Virus record (IMG/VR): IMGVR_UViG_3300029450_000074
Direction: 5' to 3' (one strand)
Origin: a virus
Taxonomy: Duplodnaviria > Heunggongvirae > Uroviricota > Caudoviricetes
DNA: 16,401 bases
The notes beneath the pieces are model-generated. The model searched no databases. It saw only the letters and a list, made by a program, of their open reading frames with translations, and had not been told where the DNA came from. This document shows positions 4,447-15,162 of the stretch, in pieces. Position 1 is the stretch's first letter. Each line of letters begins with the position of its first letter. A program made the translations under genes and the position numbers.

Positions 4447-5097
4447 ATGGACATCACACTGAATCTAAAAATGAAAAAGGATAAAGCATTAGAATTTTAC
4501 GAAAAACTTTATTTCTCAGAAATTGAGAATAAAGACAAGATACATACTCGCGCTCAAGCCGAATTCGGATTAGTTGTCATTACCGCAACTATACTCACTT
4601 ATCTCGCCAAAAACACATCTTATGAATCCCACCCAAGGCTAGCTTGCCTAGTATTTTTATGTACCGCAATTTCATTTGGCTTAGTTCTTGTATCATCAAT
4701 TCTGTTGAAACAAGTCATATGGGGAAATGAATTTAAGTATTGCCCTGCACCTAAAGCATTGCATGATTATCACATAGATCTGATTAGTTACGAAGTGAAA
4801 TATAAAAAATATTGCGATGACAATGGACTTACATACGATGAAAGTTATAACCCTGATAATAAACTTTGGGAGTTTATTCATCAAGAAATCAGAGAGTGTG
4901 CTAGCTGGAACAGTAATATCAATGAGGAACGTTCCAGTAAACTATTTGAGTCAACAAAGTATCTTGTCTGGTCATGGATTCCAATTATCGCAGCAGTAGT
5001 CATATTTCTTTTAGCTGATTTAGATGCAGCATCACCGCGGAAAAATAACGCCCCTAACTATTTGATAATACCTATTGAAAATGTCAGGAGAACTTAA
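4447..5097 (+). CDS. Hypothetical membrane protein (about 3 predicted TM helices), AT-rich accessory gene
   Basis: 216-aa ORF in visibly AT-rich DNA. Hydrophobic segments FGLVVITATILTYLA, LACLVFLCTAISFGLVLVSSILL and LVWSWIPIIAAVVIFLLADL flank a soluble Cys-containing segment of about 85 aa. No clear SD at the 4447 ATG. No family recognised. Confidence 0.5.
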   Translation: MDITLNLKMKKDKALEFYEKLYFSEIENKDKIHTRAQAEFGLVVITATILTYLAKNTSYESHPRLACLVFLCTAISFGLVLVSSILLKQVIWGNEFKYCPAPKALHDYHIDLISYEVKYKKYCDDNGLTYDESYNPDNKLWEFIHQEIRECASWNSNINEERSSKLFESTKYLVWSWIPIIAAVVIFLLADLDAASPRKNNAPNYLIIPIENVRRT

Positions 5098-5936: not shown

Positions 5937-7550
5937 CTACAATACTTTTCTCTCGATGGTATTTTTAATGGTCAACATATCTTTAGGAATACTTTTTTTC
6001 CCCTCTATACGTATGGTAAACACAAAAAGAATAACGGCTGATCTCACAATTTTCATGAGTTGTAAGAGCTGTTTCTCAAACTTTTCTTTCTCAATAAACC
6101 TCACCTCATCAAAAAATCCATAAGAATTATATAAATCAACTAACATGTCTTTCTCATGAATAACTAACAGTTTATGTTCTAAATCATTCCTCCATTCTTT
6201 AAAAAAAGCAAGCTCACCATTTTTATCATTCAAATCCATAGCAATACTAAACAAACCCAGCAATCCTTTATTATTTATTTTATTTATTTTAAGCTTTCTT
6301 TTTTCATCACTAATCCGCCAGAAGTTATGAAAGTATATATGTCCTCTATCTGGTTTTAAATCAAATAATTGACACAGAGCAACTGCTATTTTATCCAAGA
6401 TACCAAAGCAAGCTCTAAATGCAACCCTTAACTTCTCAACATTTTCATACAATATTTCTCCATTATACAATTCAGAATAACATACCTCCGAATCCTCATC
6501 AAAAAACTCACTATCAACCTTATATTCAAAAAACATTTTTCGTGCTAAGGAATACTCAGCTTTAAGTCTATTTAACACCATTTCCATTGGCACTATAAAA
6601 TCACCAAATACACCTTCCTCGGTGGTCGCAATAGTTATATTATCTTTAGATGACGCATAACAATTGCAATATAGCGAATGATCAGACAACATTAGATTAT
6701 TATCTATACAAAACCTCTGGTAGTTTGATAAAGTATCATACTCCTCCTGCGTGAGCCTTTCATCTGTACTTATATCCTCTATGCCATATACACATGATTC
6801 ACTCAATATACTTTCGTTGTGCTTTATTTTTCTTTGAAGAGTAACCTTCCATGAAGGAAAACATTTCCCTGACTTTATTGCACACTCATAACCTCGAATA
6901 ACTTCTTTAATCATTTTATATGTATATGTTGTAGATAATTCATTAAGCAATTCTAATGCCTCAGATCTGTTTACCCACGCCTGAGGAATTGAGTTATCAA
7001 TAGATATTGCTTGTTCATAATAATCCATTGATTCAGATATACGATATTGTTTTTTTAATACATTAGCTAGATTAACTATTAAATCAGGGGGCACCCATCC
7101 ATCTTCTTGTGAAAGTTTAAACGCTTTCCAGTAATTATTTTTTACATCATTCAGCTTAATGAAACTATCAATATCTGCATTGTCATTAGGATCAAAATCA
7201 AGAACTGCGCTCATTCCATTTGCCAAGTTATAGTAATATAAGGATTCTTTCATTATAGTCAGAAATTCATTTTTATTGTTTATAAAGATATTTAAGCCTT
7301 CCTCCGCTATATTTTTTACATTACTAAAACTTCCGATATCAATAAGATTTCCGGCCAAATTAGATAATATAATTATTCTATTTTCTTTGATTGTATTTAT
7401 CTCATCGATACCGTTAAGAATATCCTTTACATTTTTATAGGCAGAATCAAATGAACCTGCATTAATAAGATCATCTACGAACCCCATTTTTGAAACAACA
7501 TAGTTGATATCCNNNNNNNNNNNNNNNNNNNNNNAAGCTAATAATACCAA
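5937..7550 (-). CDS. Hypothetical 537-aa protein, AT-rich cargo gene; candidate anti-phage/abortive-infection protein with a C-terminal HEPN-like R-x4-H motif
   Basis: Long minus-strand ORF in strongly AT-rich DNA between cos and the tum/A module. C-terminal WRNDLEHKLLVIH contains R-N-D-L-E-H (codons verified at 6174-6191). No Walker A seen. N-terminus uncertain: track start is a TTG at 7550, an N-run (7513-7534) lies in the first codons, and the first ATG after it is at 7487. Confidence 0.6.
   Translation of the reverse strand: MVLLAXXXXXXXXDINYVVSKMGFVDDLINAGSFDSAYKNVKDILNGIDEINTIKENRIIILSNLAGNLIDIGSFSNVKNIAEEGLNIFINNKNEFLTIMKESLYYYNLANGMSAVLDFDPNDNADIDSFIKLNDVKNNYWKAFKLSQEDGWVPPDLIVNLANVLKKQYRISESMDYYEQAISIDNSIPQAWVNRSEALELLNELSTTYTYKMIKEVIRGYECAIKSGKCFPSWKVTLQRKIKHNESILSESCVYGIEDISTDERLTQEEYDTLSNYQRFCIDNNLMLSDHSLYCNCYASSKDNITIATTEEGVFGDFIVPMEMVLNRLKAEYSLARKMFFEYKVDSEFFDEDSEVCYSELYNGEILYENVEKLRVAFRACFGILDKIAVALCQLFDLKPDRGHIYFHNFWRISDEKRKLKINKINNKGLLGLFSIAMDLNDKNGELAFFKEWRNDLEHKLLVIHEKDMLVDLYNSYGFFDEVRFIEKEKFEKQLLQLMKIVRSAVILFVFTIRIEGKKSIPKDMLTIKNTIERKVL
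7513..7534. other. N-run (22 nt) inside the 5' end of the 537-aa cargo ORF
   Basis: Literal n characters in the sequence. Confidence 1.
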
Positions 7551-8048: not shown

Positions 8049-8240
8049 TCAGCTGATGACATCCATTGAGCGGTTGTATTCGTGGGTTCTGATTTTTGCC
8101 ATGAGTTCATCTGTCAGTTCAGNNNNNNNNNNCTGCAGGGCCAGCCCCTTCTCTTCATCACTACACTCACTAGCCGCTACAAGCTTAAGAAAAAAATCAA
8201 TGCGCTGGAGCTTCAAAGACTCCAAAAAATAGTCCTGCAT
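8049..8240 (-). CDS. Small ORF preceding the DinI-like gene (possible N-terminal part of a Tum-like protein); interrupted by N-run 8123-8132
   Basis: ATG at 8238-8240 with a strong AGGAGG SD; sits about 45 nt downstream of a LexA box. Combined length with the DinI-like ORF is about 145 aa; 186 Tum is about 146 aa (from memory). Confidence 0.4.
   Translation of the reverse strand: MQDYFLESLKLQRIDFFLKLVAASECSDEEKGLALQXXXXELTDELMAKIRTHEYNRSMDVIS
8123..8132. other. N-run (10 nt) inside the tum-like small ORF
   Basis: Literal n characters in the sequence. Confidence 1.
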
Positions 8241-8393: not shown

Positions 8394-10771
8394 TTAATAC
8401 AGGTTCCGCCACTTATCATCTTCCTGCAAACGCTGGTTCCGATAGAAAATACGCAGGCCTGCTCCTGACGGAATGCTGCCGCCGCGAAGGAGTAAATCGA
8501 CCTCTTTCTCGCTGCCATCAAATCCTCTGGACTTCAGTTCATAGACGAGCTGCTGTCGCTGATGATCTGTAATTCGCTGTTTGTAGTCTCTACGCCGTTT
8601 CGGTTTCACCAGGCGTAACCTTGCAGCCAGTTCCCGGCGCTCTTTTTTGTTCATATTGTGCAGGTAATCGTGCAATTCCTTGTCATCCATGCGGGTGATA
8701 TCCGTTCTGGTATCCCCATCAGCTGATTTGTCTTTCCCTTGTTGGTACAAATTTTCAGCAAGGGGACAGTTATTGCCACGAGTCCAAGGGGCGCAAGCGC
8801 CCTGATCGGCTGCCGCCTCCTGAACGTCAACGGCCTTACGAACCATTTTCCACTTCACTGCATGAGTGCAGATCTTGCCCTCTGCAATGGGTGACCAGAT
8901 GCCATAAATACGAATACCGTGATCGCCATAGGCGGTTGGCTCTTCGTTGATTTCATAAGCGGTTCTGATGAGGTGATATTTGCGGGGAACCAGTACGCCG
9001 CCCTGCTTCATGATGTAGGTGGCAAAACAACCAGCATCAGCAGCAGCCAGAATGGCATCAAGACGCGGGTTATCCAGTACCGGCGCACCTGCTTTTTTGT
9101 CACCCTGTTGCCTTGCCGCCTGACCAGCCAGCAAGCGAAGTTCACGGTAAGCCTGACGTCCCGGAATACCAAAGAAGCGGAATTGCTGAACACGATGCAG
9201 AGACGCCCAGGCATTAACGTATTCAGCGTTATCACGCAGGGATTTACCCGTTTCCTTGCTGATCTCGCCAGCCAGACCACGCCCGTCAATGTTCTTACTG
9301 ATGTATTTCGCGATGTAGCTTGTCGGCGTTCCTTTGCGCGGGTTTATCAGCTCAGATTTAAAGCGTGGACCAGTGTTATTACCCAGTTCCTCGCGGTCTT
9401 CACGGATGGCAAACTTACGCAACAATGCAGTAATGGCGCGGCGGTCTTTTTTGCGCATGAAACACAACAGGTGCCAGTGAACTGTACCGTCATGATGCGG
9501 CTCAGCCACCCGCACGCCATACCAGCGCAACTCGGCTTTGTGCATCGCCTTACGAAATGCAGCAAACATGCCGACCAGATAATCGCTGCTTTGTCTTACC
9601 GTCGCATTTGTCCAGGTTGGGTTTGGTCTGCCGTTATTGAGCGTGGAATGGAAACGTGACGGACAGGTAATGGTGTAGAAAACGGCGCAGTCACCGCGCA
9701 TTTCCGCGATAAGCTCCAGACCTTTAACACAGGCCATCATCTCATTGCGGCGGTGCGCCGGGTTGCTGCTGCTGGCGTTTACCACGTCTTCCATNNNNNN
9801 NNNNNNNNNNNNNCCTCTTCGTTCACCAGTTCATGAGAACGGAAAAACTCCAGTGACTTGCGGCGCTGCTCACGTTTATGCATCACGGCTTCATAGCTGA
9901 CATAGGGAGATGCTTTTTTGCTGACCAGGCAGACAGCACGCAACTGCTCTTCCCGCCATTCGCAACGCATCTTCCATAATTTCCGGTACCACCAGTCAGC
10001 GCACAACATACGCGCCAGCGAACCCGGAATGAGTTCATAGGGCACGGGTTTACGGCGGTTTCTTTTCCGGCGGAGTTGCTCAAACGCAGGCGGGATGACA
10101 TCCAGACGCAGGGTTTCCGCTGCCACCTTTTCCCATGTCTTGCGGATTTCTTCTGGCTTAACGTCATCGGTGACATACAAATCGCCACAAGCTGCATCAA
10201 GGCACATGCTCATATGCGCAGCTACCAGGGTGGACAGGCGTTTCACCTGATCCTGACTCATTTCAGGCAGGATCAGCAGGCCGTCCAGCCCTACATGGCT
10301 TGCCATAAAGCGAAAAGAAGTGGATAGCTGACAGTCGCGTACATGCTCCAGCCGTTCCAGACATGGCTTAATCGTCTCACGCAAATAGCGGGAATAAGCC
10401 TTTGGCCTGCCCAGGCTGCTGAAGTATTCAATACGTTGCATCAGTGGCTTGCTGATATGGGAAGGCTGGGCATTGACGTCCGCCAGAATGACCATATCTG
10501 GATTAAAACGCTGCTGCTCATGCGCCAGCTTTGCCCGACTAATGAGCTTATCCTGCTCCATTTCGCGCTGGACAGGATCACGGGATTCATTAAAGAAATA
10601 ACGCTCCCAGACCTGATCACTCAGTGCCTCGCGGCGCAGCTGTTCCTGCTCGTTATCGGCAGCGTACAGAGCGATCAGGTTTGAAAGCGCAGAAACTGAA
10701 GATTGCTCTTCTGTCTCTACGTAAGGATTGATTGCTTTTTTCTCAGCATTCCAGGAATAGCTGTAGTTCAT
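8394..10771 (-). CDS. A: Replication initiation protein, P2 gpA family (HUH rolling-circle endonuclease); reading frame interrupted at N-run 9795-9813
   Basis: Two adjacent minus-strand track ORFs (9779-10822 and 8394-9794). The downstream part carries HUH motif [10 protein letters not shown] and tandem-tyrosine motif YIAKYISK. Likely start is ATG 10771 (GGAGA SD) rather than the TTG at 10822. The two parts are in different frames across the 19-nt N-run. Confidence 0.75.
9795..9813. other. N-run (19 nt) inside replication gene A
   Basis: Literal n characters in the sequence. Confidence 1.
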
Positions 10772-10849
10772 TACGCAATCTCCAGTTCGAGCTGTGAAGG
10801 CTGCAAACCATTCGACAGCCAATCAGAAACTGAAGGTGGGCGAACAGCT

Positions 10850-11608
10850 TCAATTGCACCTTTTAAAATTGCGCAACGGTTTTTCAGAATGACAGCTTTC
10901 AGCTCCTTTTCCGTCANNNNNNNNNNNNNNNNNNNNNTCAGCCTCCTGAATAGCCCGCGTCAGCTCAGGATATTTGCTATTAAATTTGGGGACATTGCAG
11001 GCAAGATTTGTACTGTCGGCAGTCGCCAGTGGGTAATTTCCCAACACACGACCGTCAAGCATGCGCAAACCATGAACAGCTGTTTTGAAATTGTGTCGGC
11101 AATAAATTGCTTCAAAAGCGTCCTGCATACGACGATGCCAGTGCGCAGTTCTGATAGCCGCATATTCACCAGACGATCCAAAGCAGACACGAGGCCATTC
11201 ACGACATAGCTCGATAAGCCGATCGATTGACTCGTGCAGATGCCAGACGGGAGTTGCCTTCCCGTAGAACATTTTCGGAACTTCGTTTATCAGGGCATCA
11301 TTGTCACGTTCACCTCCGTCCACAACATCAGGAATGACAAAAAAAGCGACCTTAGGATGGTGGTAATAGTTCAGGAGCCATTTATAAAAATCACTCCAGT
11401 TAATTTTTAGCCCACGCACCCATGCAGAAAATGCGCCGTTATCAATGCCGACGACCTGAGCGTGCTGAATGGACGCCGCAATCTGATCTGGTCGTACATA
11501 GGAGACGAAAGCGCCAGCTCCGCTCACCGCAATACGATGAACGTCGCCAGCACTTCCCCAGACAGGCGTCCCATGGAAATGATGAATTCCGTGGTGCATT
11601 TCTTTCAC
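10850..11608 (-). CDS. Hypothetical 252-aa protein translationally coupled to the Dam methyltransferase; family unassigned
   Basis: Start (GTG 11606-11608 or ATG 11597-11599) overlaps or abuts the Dam stop (TGA 11605-11607). Motifs GIDNGAFSAW and VIPDVVDGG have a weak, unverified resemblance to TGT/DpdA-type signatures; no zinc-binding Cys cluster. N-run 10917-10937 lies near the C-terminus. Confidence 0.45.
   Translation of the reverse strand: MKEMHHGIHHFHGTPVWGSAGDVHRIAVSGAGAFVSYVRPDQIAASIQHAQVVGIDNGAFSAWVRGLKINWSDFYKWLLNYYHHPKVAFFVIPDVVDGGERDNDALINEVPKMFYGKATPVWHLHESIDRLIELCREWPRVCFGSSGEYAAIRTAHWHRRMQDAFEAIYCRHNFKTAVHGLRMLDGRVLGNYPLATADSTNLACNVPKFNSKYPELTRAIQEAXXXXXXXXDGKGAESCHSEKPLRNFKRCN
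10917..10937. other. N-run (21 nt) inside the Dam-coupled 252-aa ORF
   Basis: Literal n characters in the sequence. Confidence 1.
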
Positions 11609-12459
11609 ACTTGCACCCCGAAAATAACAGTAGAGTCACGTCCCCTACTAAAATCGGCACTAAACCAATTAGCAGATTTAGTGGCAATCATCTCTGTTGC
11701 AAATTTTCCCTCCCCCGCTGCAACGCCGATGCTGCGTTTCGCCCTGATGTAGTGGTGAGTGAAATTACGATAAAGGGACCGGGTCAAAGACGTGTTACTG
11801 TTAGAAACAATGACCGGATGTCCTTCTGATGACCGATGTTCAAGAATGGATGCCAGGTGATACTGATCATCTTCAGTGAAACCATCAGTGTGATAGCCGG
11901 AAAACGTACCGTCATAAGGCGGATCGCAATACACCACATCCCCCACCTTCAACATCGCCAGCGTTTCATCAAAGCTGGCGCAGATAAACGTTGCCCGCTG
12001 GGCTTTCTCTGCAAATGCGCGAATTTCTTTTTCAGGGAAATACGGATTTTTATAATTACCGTAGGGAATGTTGAAATGCCCGCTCTTGTTATAGCGACAT
12101 AAACCACGGTAACCGTGACGATTGAGATACAGGAAATATACCGCTTTCATGAAATCAGTAATTTCAGTGGAGTAATTAAACTCCTGCCTTATGTTGTAAT
12201 AAGCCACCTCCCTGTTTGCTTCCTCAAATAAAGCTCTGGCACGAGATATAAACGCCTCACAATCAGCAGCAACCTTTTTATAGAGGTTGATTAAATCAGG
12301 ATTAATATCCGCAACAAGATAGCTGGGGTAATCCGTCTCCATCATCACTGCACAGGAACCCGCGAAAGGTTCAACCAGTCGCGGGCCAGCAGGAAGATGC
12401 TTTTTCAGTTCGGACATTATGGCGGTTTTATTTCCTGCCCATTTCAGGATGGTGCTCAT
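11605..12459 (-). CDS. DNA adenine methyltransferase (Dam / D12-class N6-adenine MTase)
   Basis: N-terminus [23 protein letters not shown] resembles the Dam N-terminus; AdoMet motif EPFAGSCAV and catalytic DPPY ([10 protein letters not shown]) present. ATG at 12457-12459 with GGAGGT 6 nt upstream, overlapping the upstream zinc-finger gene stop. Confidence 0.85.
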
Positions 12460-12683
12460 ACAGCACCTCCGTTGTAATGTTTGCCTTTCAGCTCTGCGAT
12501 TTCCTGACAGGTAATGCAAAGCTGCACACCCGGAATGGCACGGCGGCGTGCTGGCGGAATTGGCGCTTCACACTCAACGCAAAGCACGCGGGACACGCCC
12601 GGCGTTTTGGCACGGGCAGCACGGATATGGCGTTGGCGTTCTTCTTCAACGCGCTGCTGTACGAGATCCATTGCATCAGCCAT
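12456..12683 (-). CDS. TraR/DksA-family C4 zinc-finger protein (P2 orf82-like)
   Basis: 75-aa ORF with CVEC...CITC (CxxC-N17-CxxC); ATG at 12681-12683 overlaps the upstream ORF stop. Confidence 0.7.
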   Translation of the reverse strand: MADAMDLVQQRVEEERQRHIRAARAKTPGVSRVLCVECEAPIPPARRRAIPGVQLCITCQEIAELKGKHYNGGAV

Positions 12684-14260: not shown

Positions 14261-14385
14261 GATGCAACATTCCTCGTTTAATGATGATTAATCAGGACGA
14301 ATACGGATCGTTTGTATTTTGTGAACACCATAAACATACGATCGCACAGTGAAATCGTCAAGATAAAAGTTCACTTGGAGTGACC
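14261..14385. promoter_or_regulatory. Lysogeny/lysis switch region; candidate leftward lytic promoter
   Basis: On the minus strand: -35 TTGACG (plus 14356-14361), 17-nt spacer, -10 TATGTT (plus 14333-14338), reading toward the Apl-like gene. A rightward repressor promoter was not confidently located. Confidence 0.35.
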
Positions 14386-14970: not shown

Positions 14971-15162
14971 ATGCTTGGTAAGGTATTTTTTGTGGTTTTA
15001 TCATGCTCTTTGTTATTAAACCCACTAACTACCTATGCTAAAAATTATCCTTGTTCTGGGAAAAAGGGAGGTGTCTCTCACTGTACCTCCGATGGAAAGT
15101 TCGTTTGCAATGATGGAACTATTAGTAAATCAAAAAAAATCTGTACTAAAAACTCGCGATAA
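14971..15162 (+). CDS. Small secreted cysteine-rich peptide (signal peptide plus about 40-aa mature peptide with 4 Cys)
   Basis: Strong SD GGGAGG before ATG 14971; N-terminal [23 protein letters not shown] looks like a Sec signal peptide; mature part [40 protein letters not shown] is basic with 4 cysteines. AT-rich insert between cI and int. Confidence 0.5.

Follow-up and report, generated by a model that had tools for sequence, protein, structure and literature searches.

The described relatives of the gene considered here include the DpdA1 enzymes of the Queuovirinae, represented by the Escherichia phages CAjan and 9g, which insert preQ0 into DNA. Both phages carry folE, queD, queE, queC and a transporter gene next to dpdA, and 25-32% of their guanines are replaced. 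It was reported that deletion of dpdA in CAjan abolishes dPreQ0, and that the DpdA of 9g alone puts dPreQ0 into plasmid DNA in E. coli by using the preQ0 of the host (Hutinet et al. 2019, PMC6884629). The present analysis concerns a stretch of 16,401 nucleotides (IMG/VR virus record IMGVR_UViG_3300029450_000074, Caudoviricetes), called the window in its full length, which is part of a P2/186-like E. coli prophage. Within it, the gene that follows a Dam methylase gene most likely encodes a minimal enzyme (about 275 aa) of the TIM-barrel TGT superfamily, a putative DNA guanine transglycosylase, which is referred to as the DpdA-like protein. It shares with the DpdA1 of CAjan and 9g the DxGAFS motif, the conserved His residues, the DS(S/T) nucleophile motif and the lack of a CxCxxC...H zinc site, at an identity of about 19%. 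Unlike those two phages, the window phage is devoid of the accompanying synthesis and transporter genes; it would have to draw on host pools, and the number of modified sites would probably be far smaller than in CAjan and 9g.

A group of phages with DpdA but without preQ0 or G+ synthesis genes has also been described, and the proteins of SEN1 (YP_009217891) and 7-11 (YP_004782407) are among those listed in its Supplementary Data 1 (Hutinet et al. 2019, PMC6884629). Since these and other relatives are listed there as DpdA-only, the family of the window protein is already catalogued; HK106, SfI, SPN3UB, BTP1 and PEAT2 are further phages of this group with members of the same family. In SEN1 as in the window the gene lies immediately upstream of gene A, but it is preceded by DUF5405 in SEN1 and by Dam in the window.

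Two further systems share the TGT fold. The bacterial DpdA of the S. Montevideo Dpd system (PDB 7UI4) is a protein of 413 aa with the insertions Ins1-3 and Ins8 and a structural zinc site; it needs the ATPase DpdB and belongs to an 11-gene defence island. No open reading frame (ORF) for DpdB, DpdC or dpdD-K was found in the window, PADLOC gave no match for the DpdA-like protein, and the context is a P2-like lytic operon, so that the locus does not qualify as a Dpd restriction-modification system. The second system is Cap10 of type IV CBASS (PDB 9NTN), which binds the deazaguanylated N-terminus of a CD-NTase and is encoded in a defence operon together with its QueC-like partner Cap9. The resemblance to Cap10 is confined to the fold and a His/Asp pair, whereas the genomic context in the window is a phage lytic operon. 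A CD-NTase with an N-terminal Gly-rich tail, a QueC-like Cap9 and Cap11 were all absent from the window and from the related loci.

Family, fold and limits of the DpdA-like protein

The DpdA-like gene occupies positions 10771..11608 on the minus strand. Its product matches PHROG 887, "queuine tRNA-ribosyltransferase", with an E-value of 5.8e-87. In tblastn comparisons, its identity was 76% to the SEN1 and SW9 proteins, encoded in the same slot before gene A in these P2-like Salmonella phages, and 35-42% to proteins of phages 7-11, HK106, BTP1, SfI and SPN3UB (for gp032 of phage 7-11, 35% identity over 94% of the length, E = 4e-50). Matches at E ≤ 1e-3 comprise 1929 clusters at 90% identity and, at 50% identity, 899 representatives. 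For a family profile, 75 diverse sequences with 27-59% identity to the query were taken from a search that covered 1.84 billion cluster representatives, and this profile was aligned by hhalign with the validated DpdA of CAjan with a probability of 98.9% and an E-value of 1.6e-17 over 172 columns. The alignment pairs IDNGAFS of the family with LDSGAFS of CAjan, and H120, G141, H176 and D195-S196 with their counterparts. The first-pass annotation had found the protein loosely reminiscent of TGT/DpdA-type enzymes, and this guess is backed by the PHROG match, the homology to SEN1 and 7-11, the alignment to CAjan DpdA and the five invariant catalytic-type residues plus S196 discussed below. It is highly probable that the protein belongs to the phage DpdA-only (singleton) clade of the TGT superfamily. 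Its RefSeq label is hypothetical protein, and the name queuine tRNA-ribosyltransferase given in phage annotations is probably a misnomer.

The AlphaFold2 model of the protein (pLDDT 90.1, pTM 0.86) shows beta-alpha repeats arranged in a beta/alpha barrel, and the predicted fold agrees with the (beta/alpha)8 barrel of the TGT type. A Foldseek search of BFVD with this model gave 32 matches at E ≤ 1e-3, a Vibrio phage nt-1 protein included, and nearly all of those with a functional name are called queuine tRNA-ribosyltransferase; the matches obtained in the PDB were weak and mixed with other TIM barrels. Across the 75 representatives only six columns are invariant, namely D53, D91, H120, H176, D195 and S196, and the three active-site aspartates D53, D91 and D195 are thus kept in 75 of 75. 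Each of the six residues is placed by the model at the C-terminal end of a predicted strand.

In bacterial DpdA, D95 is the general acid/base, D130 and H181 act at the base edge and D256 is the nucleophile (PMC10164549). Residues D53, D91, H120, H176 and D195 of the window protein fit D95, D130, H181 and D256 of this enzyme, and also D73, D122, H226 and D248 of Cap10, by order and spacing; the mapping to 7UI4 and Cap10 was made by inspection of order, spacing and strand position and is not a structural superposition. In the hhalign alignment, D53 and D195 fall on the LDSG and CDSS motifs of CAjan DpdA, while the equivalence of D91 is positional, as the alignment sets the CAjan Asp three residues later. 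In addition, F57, four residues past D53, matches the stacking or gate residue Phe99 of DpdA.

The limits of the gene are obscured in the window by masking. Four N runs are present (7513-7534, 8123-8132, 9795-9813 and 10917-10937), and since their lengths differ from those of the real sequence they give rise to false frameshifts. The run of 21 bases at 10917..10937 interrupts the DpdA-like gene and stands for about 14 real bases; the resulting frameshift produces an apparent ORF of 252 aa ending at 10850. The first-pass annotation had described a protein of exactly this length and end, which was rejected as a masking artefact. Unmasked E. coli records give a protein of 276 aa from GTG 11608, or of 273 aa from ATG 11599 (the RefSeq start), and a TAA stop at 10771-10773, which shares bases with the ATG of gene A in the sequence TAATG. 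The overlap between the Dam stop and the start of its partner, claimed at the same time, holds, as TGA overlaps GTG 11608 in the form GTGA, and the reported motifs GIDNGAFSAW and VIPDVVDGG are indeed contained in the ORF.

Lineages at 100, 85, 80 and 79% identity retain the GTGA overlap, irrespective of which of Dam and TraR lies upstream. Because of this conservation, and because many homologues are 276 aa long, GTG 11608 is more likely to be the true start. As the same overlap is found with TraR upstream, translational coupling is a property of the whole compact operon and is not specific to Dam. At the other end, the stretch encoding the C-terminus (10771-10830 on the minus strand; last residues ...QLELEIA) is unusually conserved among P2-type homologues. 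Gene A has its ribosome-binding site (GGAG) and its start in this stretch, the conservation of which may reflect the double constraint.

Deazaguanine genes and methylases in the window and in related loci

E. coli has a full queuosine pathway. In the possession of such a host, as in the lack of preQ0 synthesis genes, the window phage resembles the DpdA-only phages, and since the prophage has neither synthesis nor transport genes, the deazaguanine base would come from the host. In relatives, gene content suggests a direct link with deazaguanine metabolism. Three T1-like phages, Tbat1_6, Opt-719 and LHE71, have a short Vut_1/YhhQ-like gene directly upstream of the homologue; these three VUT/YhhQ-like genes encode about 158 aa (L003 3525-4001, L089 2019-2495 and L088 2516-2995) and show weak similarity to the CAjan gene for a putative preQ0 transporter (E about 1e-5 to 1e-6). 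A search for related loci with the Opt-719 homologue found none. Among IMG/VR loci, a Vut_1/YhhQ-like gene was observed immediately upstream in 12 of 46 of the HK106 type and in 2 of 80 of the BTP1 type. A fusion of QueD to a DpdA-like domain was also found (P0203, at L100 2840-3847, JGI metagenome 3300041077), in which the QueD part belongs to the 6-pyruvoyl-tetrahydropterin synthase family (PTPS) and the DpdA-like domain is without its first strand; this fusion is known from a single contig of 24 kb.

The Dam gene (11605..12459, minus strand) encodes an N6-adenine DNA methyltransferase of the D12 class with 284 aa. It was matched by PF02086 over profile positions 1-253 of 253 (2e-76, 257.5 bits, cut-off 22), by TIGR00571 (318.4 bits, 4.3e-95, cut-off 114.85) and by the PADLOC orphan methyltransferase model (6.1e-110), and it stays below the chromosomal Dam equivalog NF008152 (288 vs 441). 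The translation carries the catalytic YCDPPYDG (DPPY) and the AdoMet-binding EPFAGSCAV; on such motifs the gene had been assigned to the Dam family at first sight, an assignment now borne out by both curated cut-offs. No restriction partner gene was found near Dam, and GATC occurs in the window about as often as expected (67 sites vs 61 ± 7). The protein is a typical phage orphan D12 methylase.

Multi-domain fusions of phage DNA-modifying enzymes are a known pattern, as in Dam-Dcm of the P1 type, but in the relatives of the window protein the methylase is joined to a transglycosylase-type domain and not to a second methylase. In Rosenbergiella metrosideri JB07 (NZ_JALBCV010000011.1; L097 3953-5686), a single ORF of 577 aa consists of a complete DpdA-like homologue (63% identity) in the N-terminal half and a complete D12 methylase (PF02086, 4.7e-51) in the C-terminal half. 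Compared with the window, where Dam comes first, the two parts stand in the opposite order, and the ORF is immediately preceded by an RdgC gene. In another fusion (P0272, 575 aa; L101/L102 6001-7728), an HK106-type DpdA-like domain is followed by a D12 domain (Pfam, 2.4e-53), and the two D12 fusions are just 42% identical to each other. In a third (P0274, 483 aa; L103 721-2172), the DpdA-like domain is combined with an MT-A70 adenine methylase (3.3e-26). The catalytic motifs are intact in both halves of all three proteins. Directly upstream of the fusion, a Vut_1/YhhQ-like gene is present in both retrieved loci, that of P0272 (L101/L102) and that of P0274 (L103). In L101, a weak C5-methylase match was seen two genes downstream of the fusion.

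As the fusions involve two unrelated methylase folds, DNA as the shared substrate and co-selection of both activities are indicated; they do not show a mechanistic dependence of the DpdA-like enzyme on the methylase. No isolated phage with a DpdA-like::Dam fusion was present in the collection searched. In the literature searched, which was limited to open-access text, no description was found of the methylase fusions or of the arrangement of VUT, DpdA-like and methylase genes, and publications on P2-like diversity, E. coli HS phages, V. cholerae WASA-1 and defence glycosylases are silent on the DpdA-only clade.

Three other joined proteins, P0125, P0273 and P0011, were rejected as meaningful fusions, as they look like products of frameshift, deletion or assembly. 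P0273 (E. coli, 568 aa) is a frameshift read-through from the DpdA-like gene into gene A, and P0011 (421 aa) is an in-frame deletion product joining Dam(1-192) to DpdA-like(45-273) in one Logan contig. In another case, H26 from strain H32, an IS3 insertion lies within the module.

Function of the enzyme and its pairing with Dam

That the DpdA-like enzyme inserts host-made 7-deazaguanine into phage DNA is given a probability of about 0.6. On induction or infection, the enzyme would be made together with Dam and the replication initiator A, as the operon layout suggests. It would then bind phage DNA and flip out a guanine in some sequence context, with Asp91 and His120 reading the base edge if the correspondence to TGT, DpdA and Cap10 holds. 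A 7-deazaguanine base supplied by the queuosine pathway of the host, either preQ0 or possibly preQ1, CDG or ADG, would then resolve the intermediate. Dam would separately methylate adenine, presumably in GATC as in its family. The progeny DNA would carry two chemically different marks, m6A and deazaguanine at low density, and these may blunt restriction in the next host.

Several observations weigh against this reading. The main counter-evidence is that phage 7-11, the only member of the clade that has been examined, was reported to contain about 50 dADG per million nucleotides, while no DNA modification was detected in the more distant singleton Orion, and a divergence of function among singletons was raised as a question in that study (PMC6884629). 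In this clade, DNA modification is known at trace level at most. Neither the window nor any of the 80 best P2-type IMG/VR loci contains a FolE, QueD, QueE, QueC or VUT/YhhQ gene, and the GATC specificity of Dam is assumed from family membership. The DpdA-like protein gave no match in Pfam, NCBIfam or PADLOC, its 75 relatives gave none to the Pfam TGT model (PF01702), and sequence searches of the PDB with the single protein and with two family profiles returned noise only. The zinc motif CxCx2Cx22H, which is defining for TGT and bacterial DpdA (PMC10164549), is absent from the protein (no CxCxxC), C201 and C240 are not conserved in the family, and both the DNA-binding insertions of bacterial DpdA and a DpdB-like ATPase are lacking.

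Part of this evidence is met by the validated CAjan enzyme. CAjan DpdA has no Pfam match, reaches just 1.3e-3 with the PADLOC DpdA model and has no phmmer match in the PDB. Because this validated enzyme is missed as well, it was concluded that the curated TGT/DpdA models do not cover phage DpdA. The missing Cys zinc cluster, already pointed out in the first-pass annotation, is likewise not disqualifying because CAjan DpdA is also without it; it separates phage DpdA from TGT and bacterial DpdA but is no argument against membership.

It is also conceivable that the singleton clade has diverged from DNA insertion and has kept the TGT-type base pocket for another target. Possibilities are protein-linked deazaguanine (Cap10-like, for example in disarming type IV CBASS), tRNA, or an exchange or excision of guanine that erases host-type marks. 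The trace or missing modification in the tested singleton phages, the question of divergence raised with it (PMC6884629) and the absence of the insertions and zinc site of bacterial DpdA all fit such a change, and the invariant H176/D195 pair mirrors H226/D248 of Cap10; however, Cap10 may rank first simply because no other available TGT-fold structure is as compact. In the neighbourhood, no Cap9/QueC-like gene, CD-NTase or other partner was found and PADLOC gave no match for the protein, so a Cap10-like or other non-DNA role is without contextual support. The profile homology is to the DNA-modifying DpdA1, which has no zinc site either, and the fusions to DNA methylases indicate DNA as the shared substrate. 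A change of target is therefore considered unlikely. The hypothetical label in RefSeq, the missing Pfam and NCBIfam matches and disrupted copies such as the IS3 insertion in strain H32 and the frameshift of P0273 into gene A could suggest that the ORF has arisen by chance or is an inactive or decayed remnant, in either case without enzymatic function. This idea is effectively refuted by the conservation pattern: the number of clusters and representatives matched, the invariant catalytic-type residues, the confidently predicted fold and the intact allele, which was found at ≥99% identity in 102 E. coli genomes. Lysogens with an intact module are, for example, the E. coli strains 13TMH22, RM10466 and D4.

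As regards the pairing with Dam, the neighbourhood counts weigh against a conserved module. Of the 80 P2-type loci, 50 have Dam upstream of the DpdA-like gene, 21 have DUF5405 and 8 have TraR, and DUF5405 takes the place of Dam in SEN1 as well. Among species-dereplicated genomes, Dam was upstream in 1 of 9 informative loci. With a query that spanned Dam and TraR, the Dam region was matched in 1240 of 5426 complete E. coli genomes; only 107, or about 2%, have the DpdA-like gene. In the HK106-type and BTP1-type loci, a methylase adjoins the homologue in only about 3 of 126; the C5-methylase query used for these contained Dam sequence, so that its few matches mean just a DNA methylase nearby. An obligate pair was rejected, as the two genes assort independently. 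All of this would be expected if Dam and the DpdA-like gene were independent accessory genes lying side by side in a variable slot upstream of gene A, their overlap being a result of operon compaction without cooperation, and it accords with the GTGA overlap seen with TraR upstream and with the overlap of every operon junction. The whole-domain fusions to the two unrelated adenine methylase families D12 and MT-A70, with the two D12 fusions strongly diverged from each other, are harder to reconcile with full independence, as is the presence of Dam directly upstream in diverged P2-type lineages at 100, 85, 80 and 74% identity. The chances of independence are put at about even, a judgement that bears on the pairing only and not on the action of the DpdA-like enzyme.

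The two-gene modification module proposed in the first-pass annotation thus stands in part: relatives fused to D12 and MT-A70 domains speak for it, whereas Dam is the upstream gene in just a portion of the loci, far more genomes carry the Dam region than the DpdA-like gene, and the overlap is generic to the operon. The two genes are best seen as optional cassettes that recur together and not as an obligate pair, and a real functional cooperation of the DpdA-like enzyme with Dam is a tentative proposal at most. In its strongest form, the DpdA-like enzyme would be brought to DNA by the adenine methylase or would act at or next to its site, for example on the G of GATC. Recruitment by the methylase is invoked because the transglycosylase is without DNA-binding insertions and an ATPase partner. 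Such a cooperative dual-mark system is quite unlikely; if it existed, one motif would carry both 7-deazaguanine and m6A, and the fusions with their upstream transporter would represent a previously undescribed three-part phage cassette (VUT, DpdA-like enzyme and methyltransferase), of which the window would hold a split version without the transporter.

Prophage setting and significance

In the window, the capsid scaffold, terminase and portal genes are followed by a variable cargo region, the early lytic operon on the minus strand, and the cI repressor and integrase genes. The order of the operon is pR, apl, cII, fil and further small genes, TraR, Dam, the DpdA-like gene and A. The unmasked E. 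coli chromosome NZ_CP019256.1, which is 98.9% identical to the window, is annotated in the same gene order, with CII, Fil, DUF5347, DUF2732, TraR/DksA, DNA adenine methylase, hypothetical protein and replication endonuclease.

The gene upstream of Dam (12456..12683, minus strand) encodes a TraR/DksA-type C4 zinc-finger protein of 75 aa (PF01258, 4.4e-11; TIGR02419, 67.1 bits with a cut-off of 59.7; PHROG 54, 1.8e-30), and its TGA stop overlaps the Dam start as ATGA. Gene A (8394..10771, minus strand) encodes the P2-type replication endonuclease, of 790 aa in the unmasked record, and is falsely split in the window by the N run at 9795-9813 into 8394-9794 and 9779-10822. It is the constant 3' neighbour of the DpdA-like gene in P2-like phages and follows it immediately in almost all of the 80 IMG/VR loci.

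A sigma-70-like promoter, TTGACG-17-TATGTT, was recognized by its match to the consensus at 14333..14361 on the minus strand, upstream of the apl/cox-like gene, and is the probable early lytic promoter of the operon holding TraR, Dam, the DpdA-like gene and A. Between this site and gene A, no second promoter-like site was found on the minus strand, and terminator-like sites are no commoner than in shuffled sequence. As the sole minus-strand promoter-like site before gene A is the one upstream of the apl-like gene, the DpdA-like gene is expected to be switched on together with the lytic genes and to be silent in the lysogen. A prophage defence gene active in the lysogen was accordingly rejected, the gene lying within a repressed lytic operon with no promoter-like site of its own.

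Other genes of the window were noted in passing. In the variable cargo region, between the portal and DinI-like genes, lies a gene for a protein of 537 aa (5937-7550, minus strand) with TPR repeats and a C-terminal LA2681-like HEPN domain (PF18733, 1.9e-38); a related E. coli prophage has a TIR-domain protein in this position, and the HEPN/TPR gene is a candidate for anti-phage cargo. An ORF of 216 aa (4447-5097, plus strand), which adjoins the portal gene and has no significant Pfam or PADLOC match, may belong to this cargo region too. A further ORF, of 63 aa (14971-15162, plus strand), is located between cI and the integrase gene; its product starts with a hydrophobic stretch and contains several Cys residues. 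In SEN1 this position is taken by a DUF2511 gene, and the ORF of the window may be a moron for a small secreted protein or lipoprotein.

In the 2019 phage catalogue, singleton DpdA formed the largest group, with 76 of 182 viruses (PMC6884629). The DpdA-like protein of the window is an additional member of this catalogued but uncharacterised group. Because its allele resides in an inducible P2/186-like prophage of E. coli, a host for which queuosine-pathway mutants, dam mutants and defined restriction or modification-dependent defences are at hand, the function of a singleton DpdA becomes directly testable. The adenine-methylase fusions and the transporter neighbour in its relatives provide concrete hypotheses on the substrate and the partners of the enzyme.

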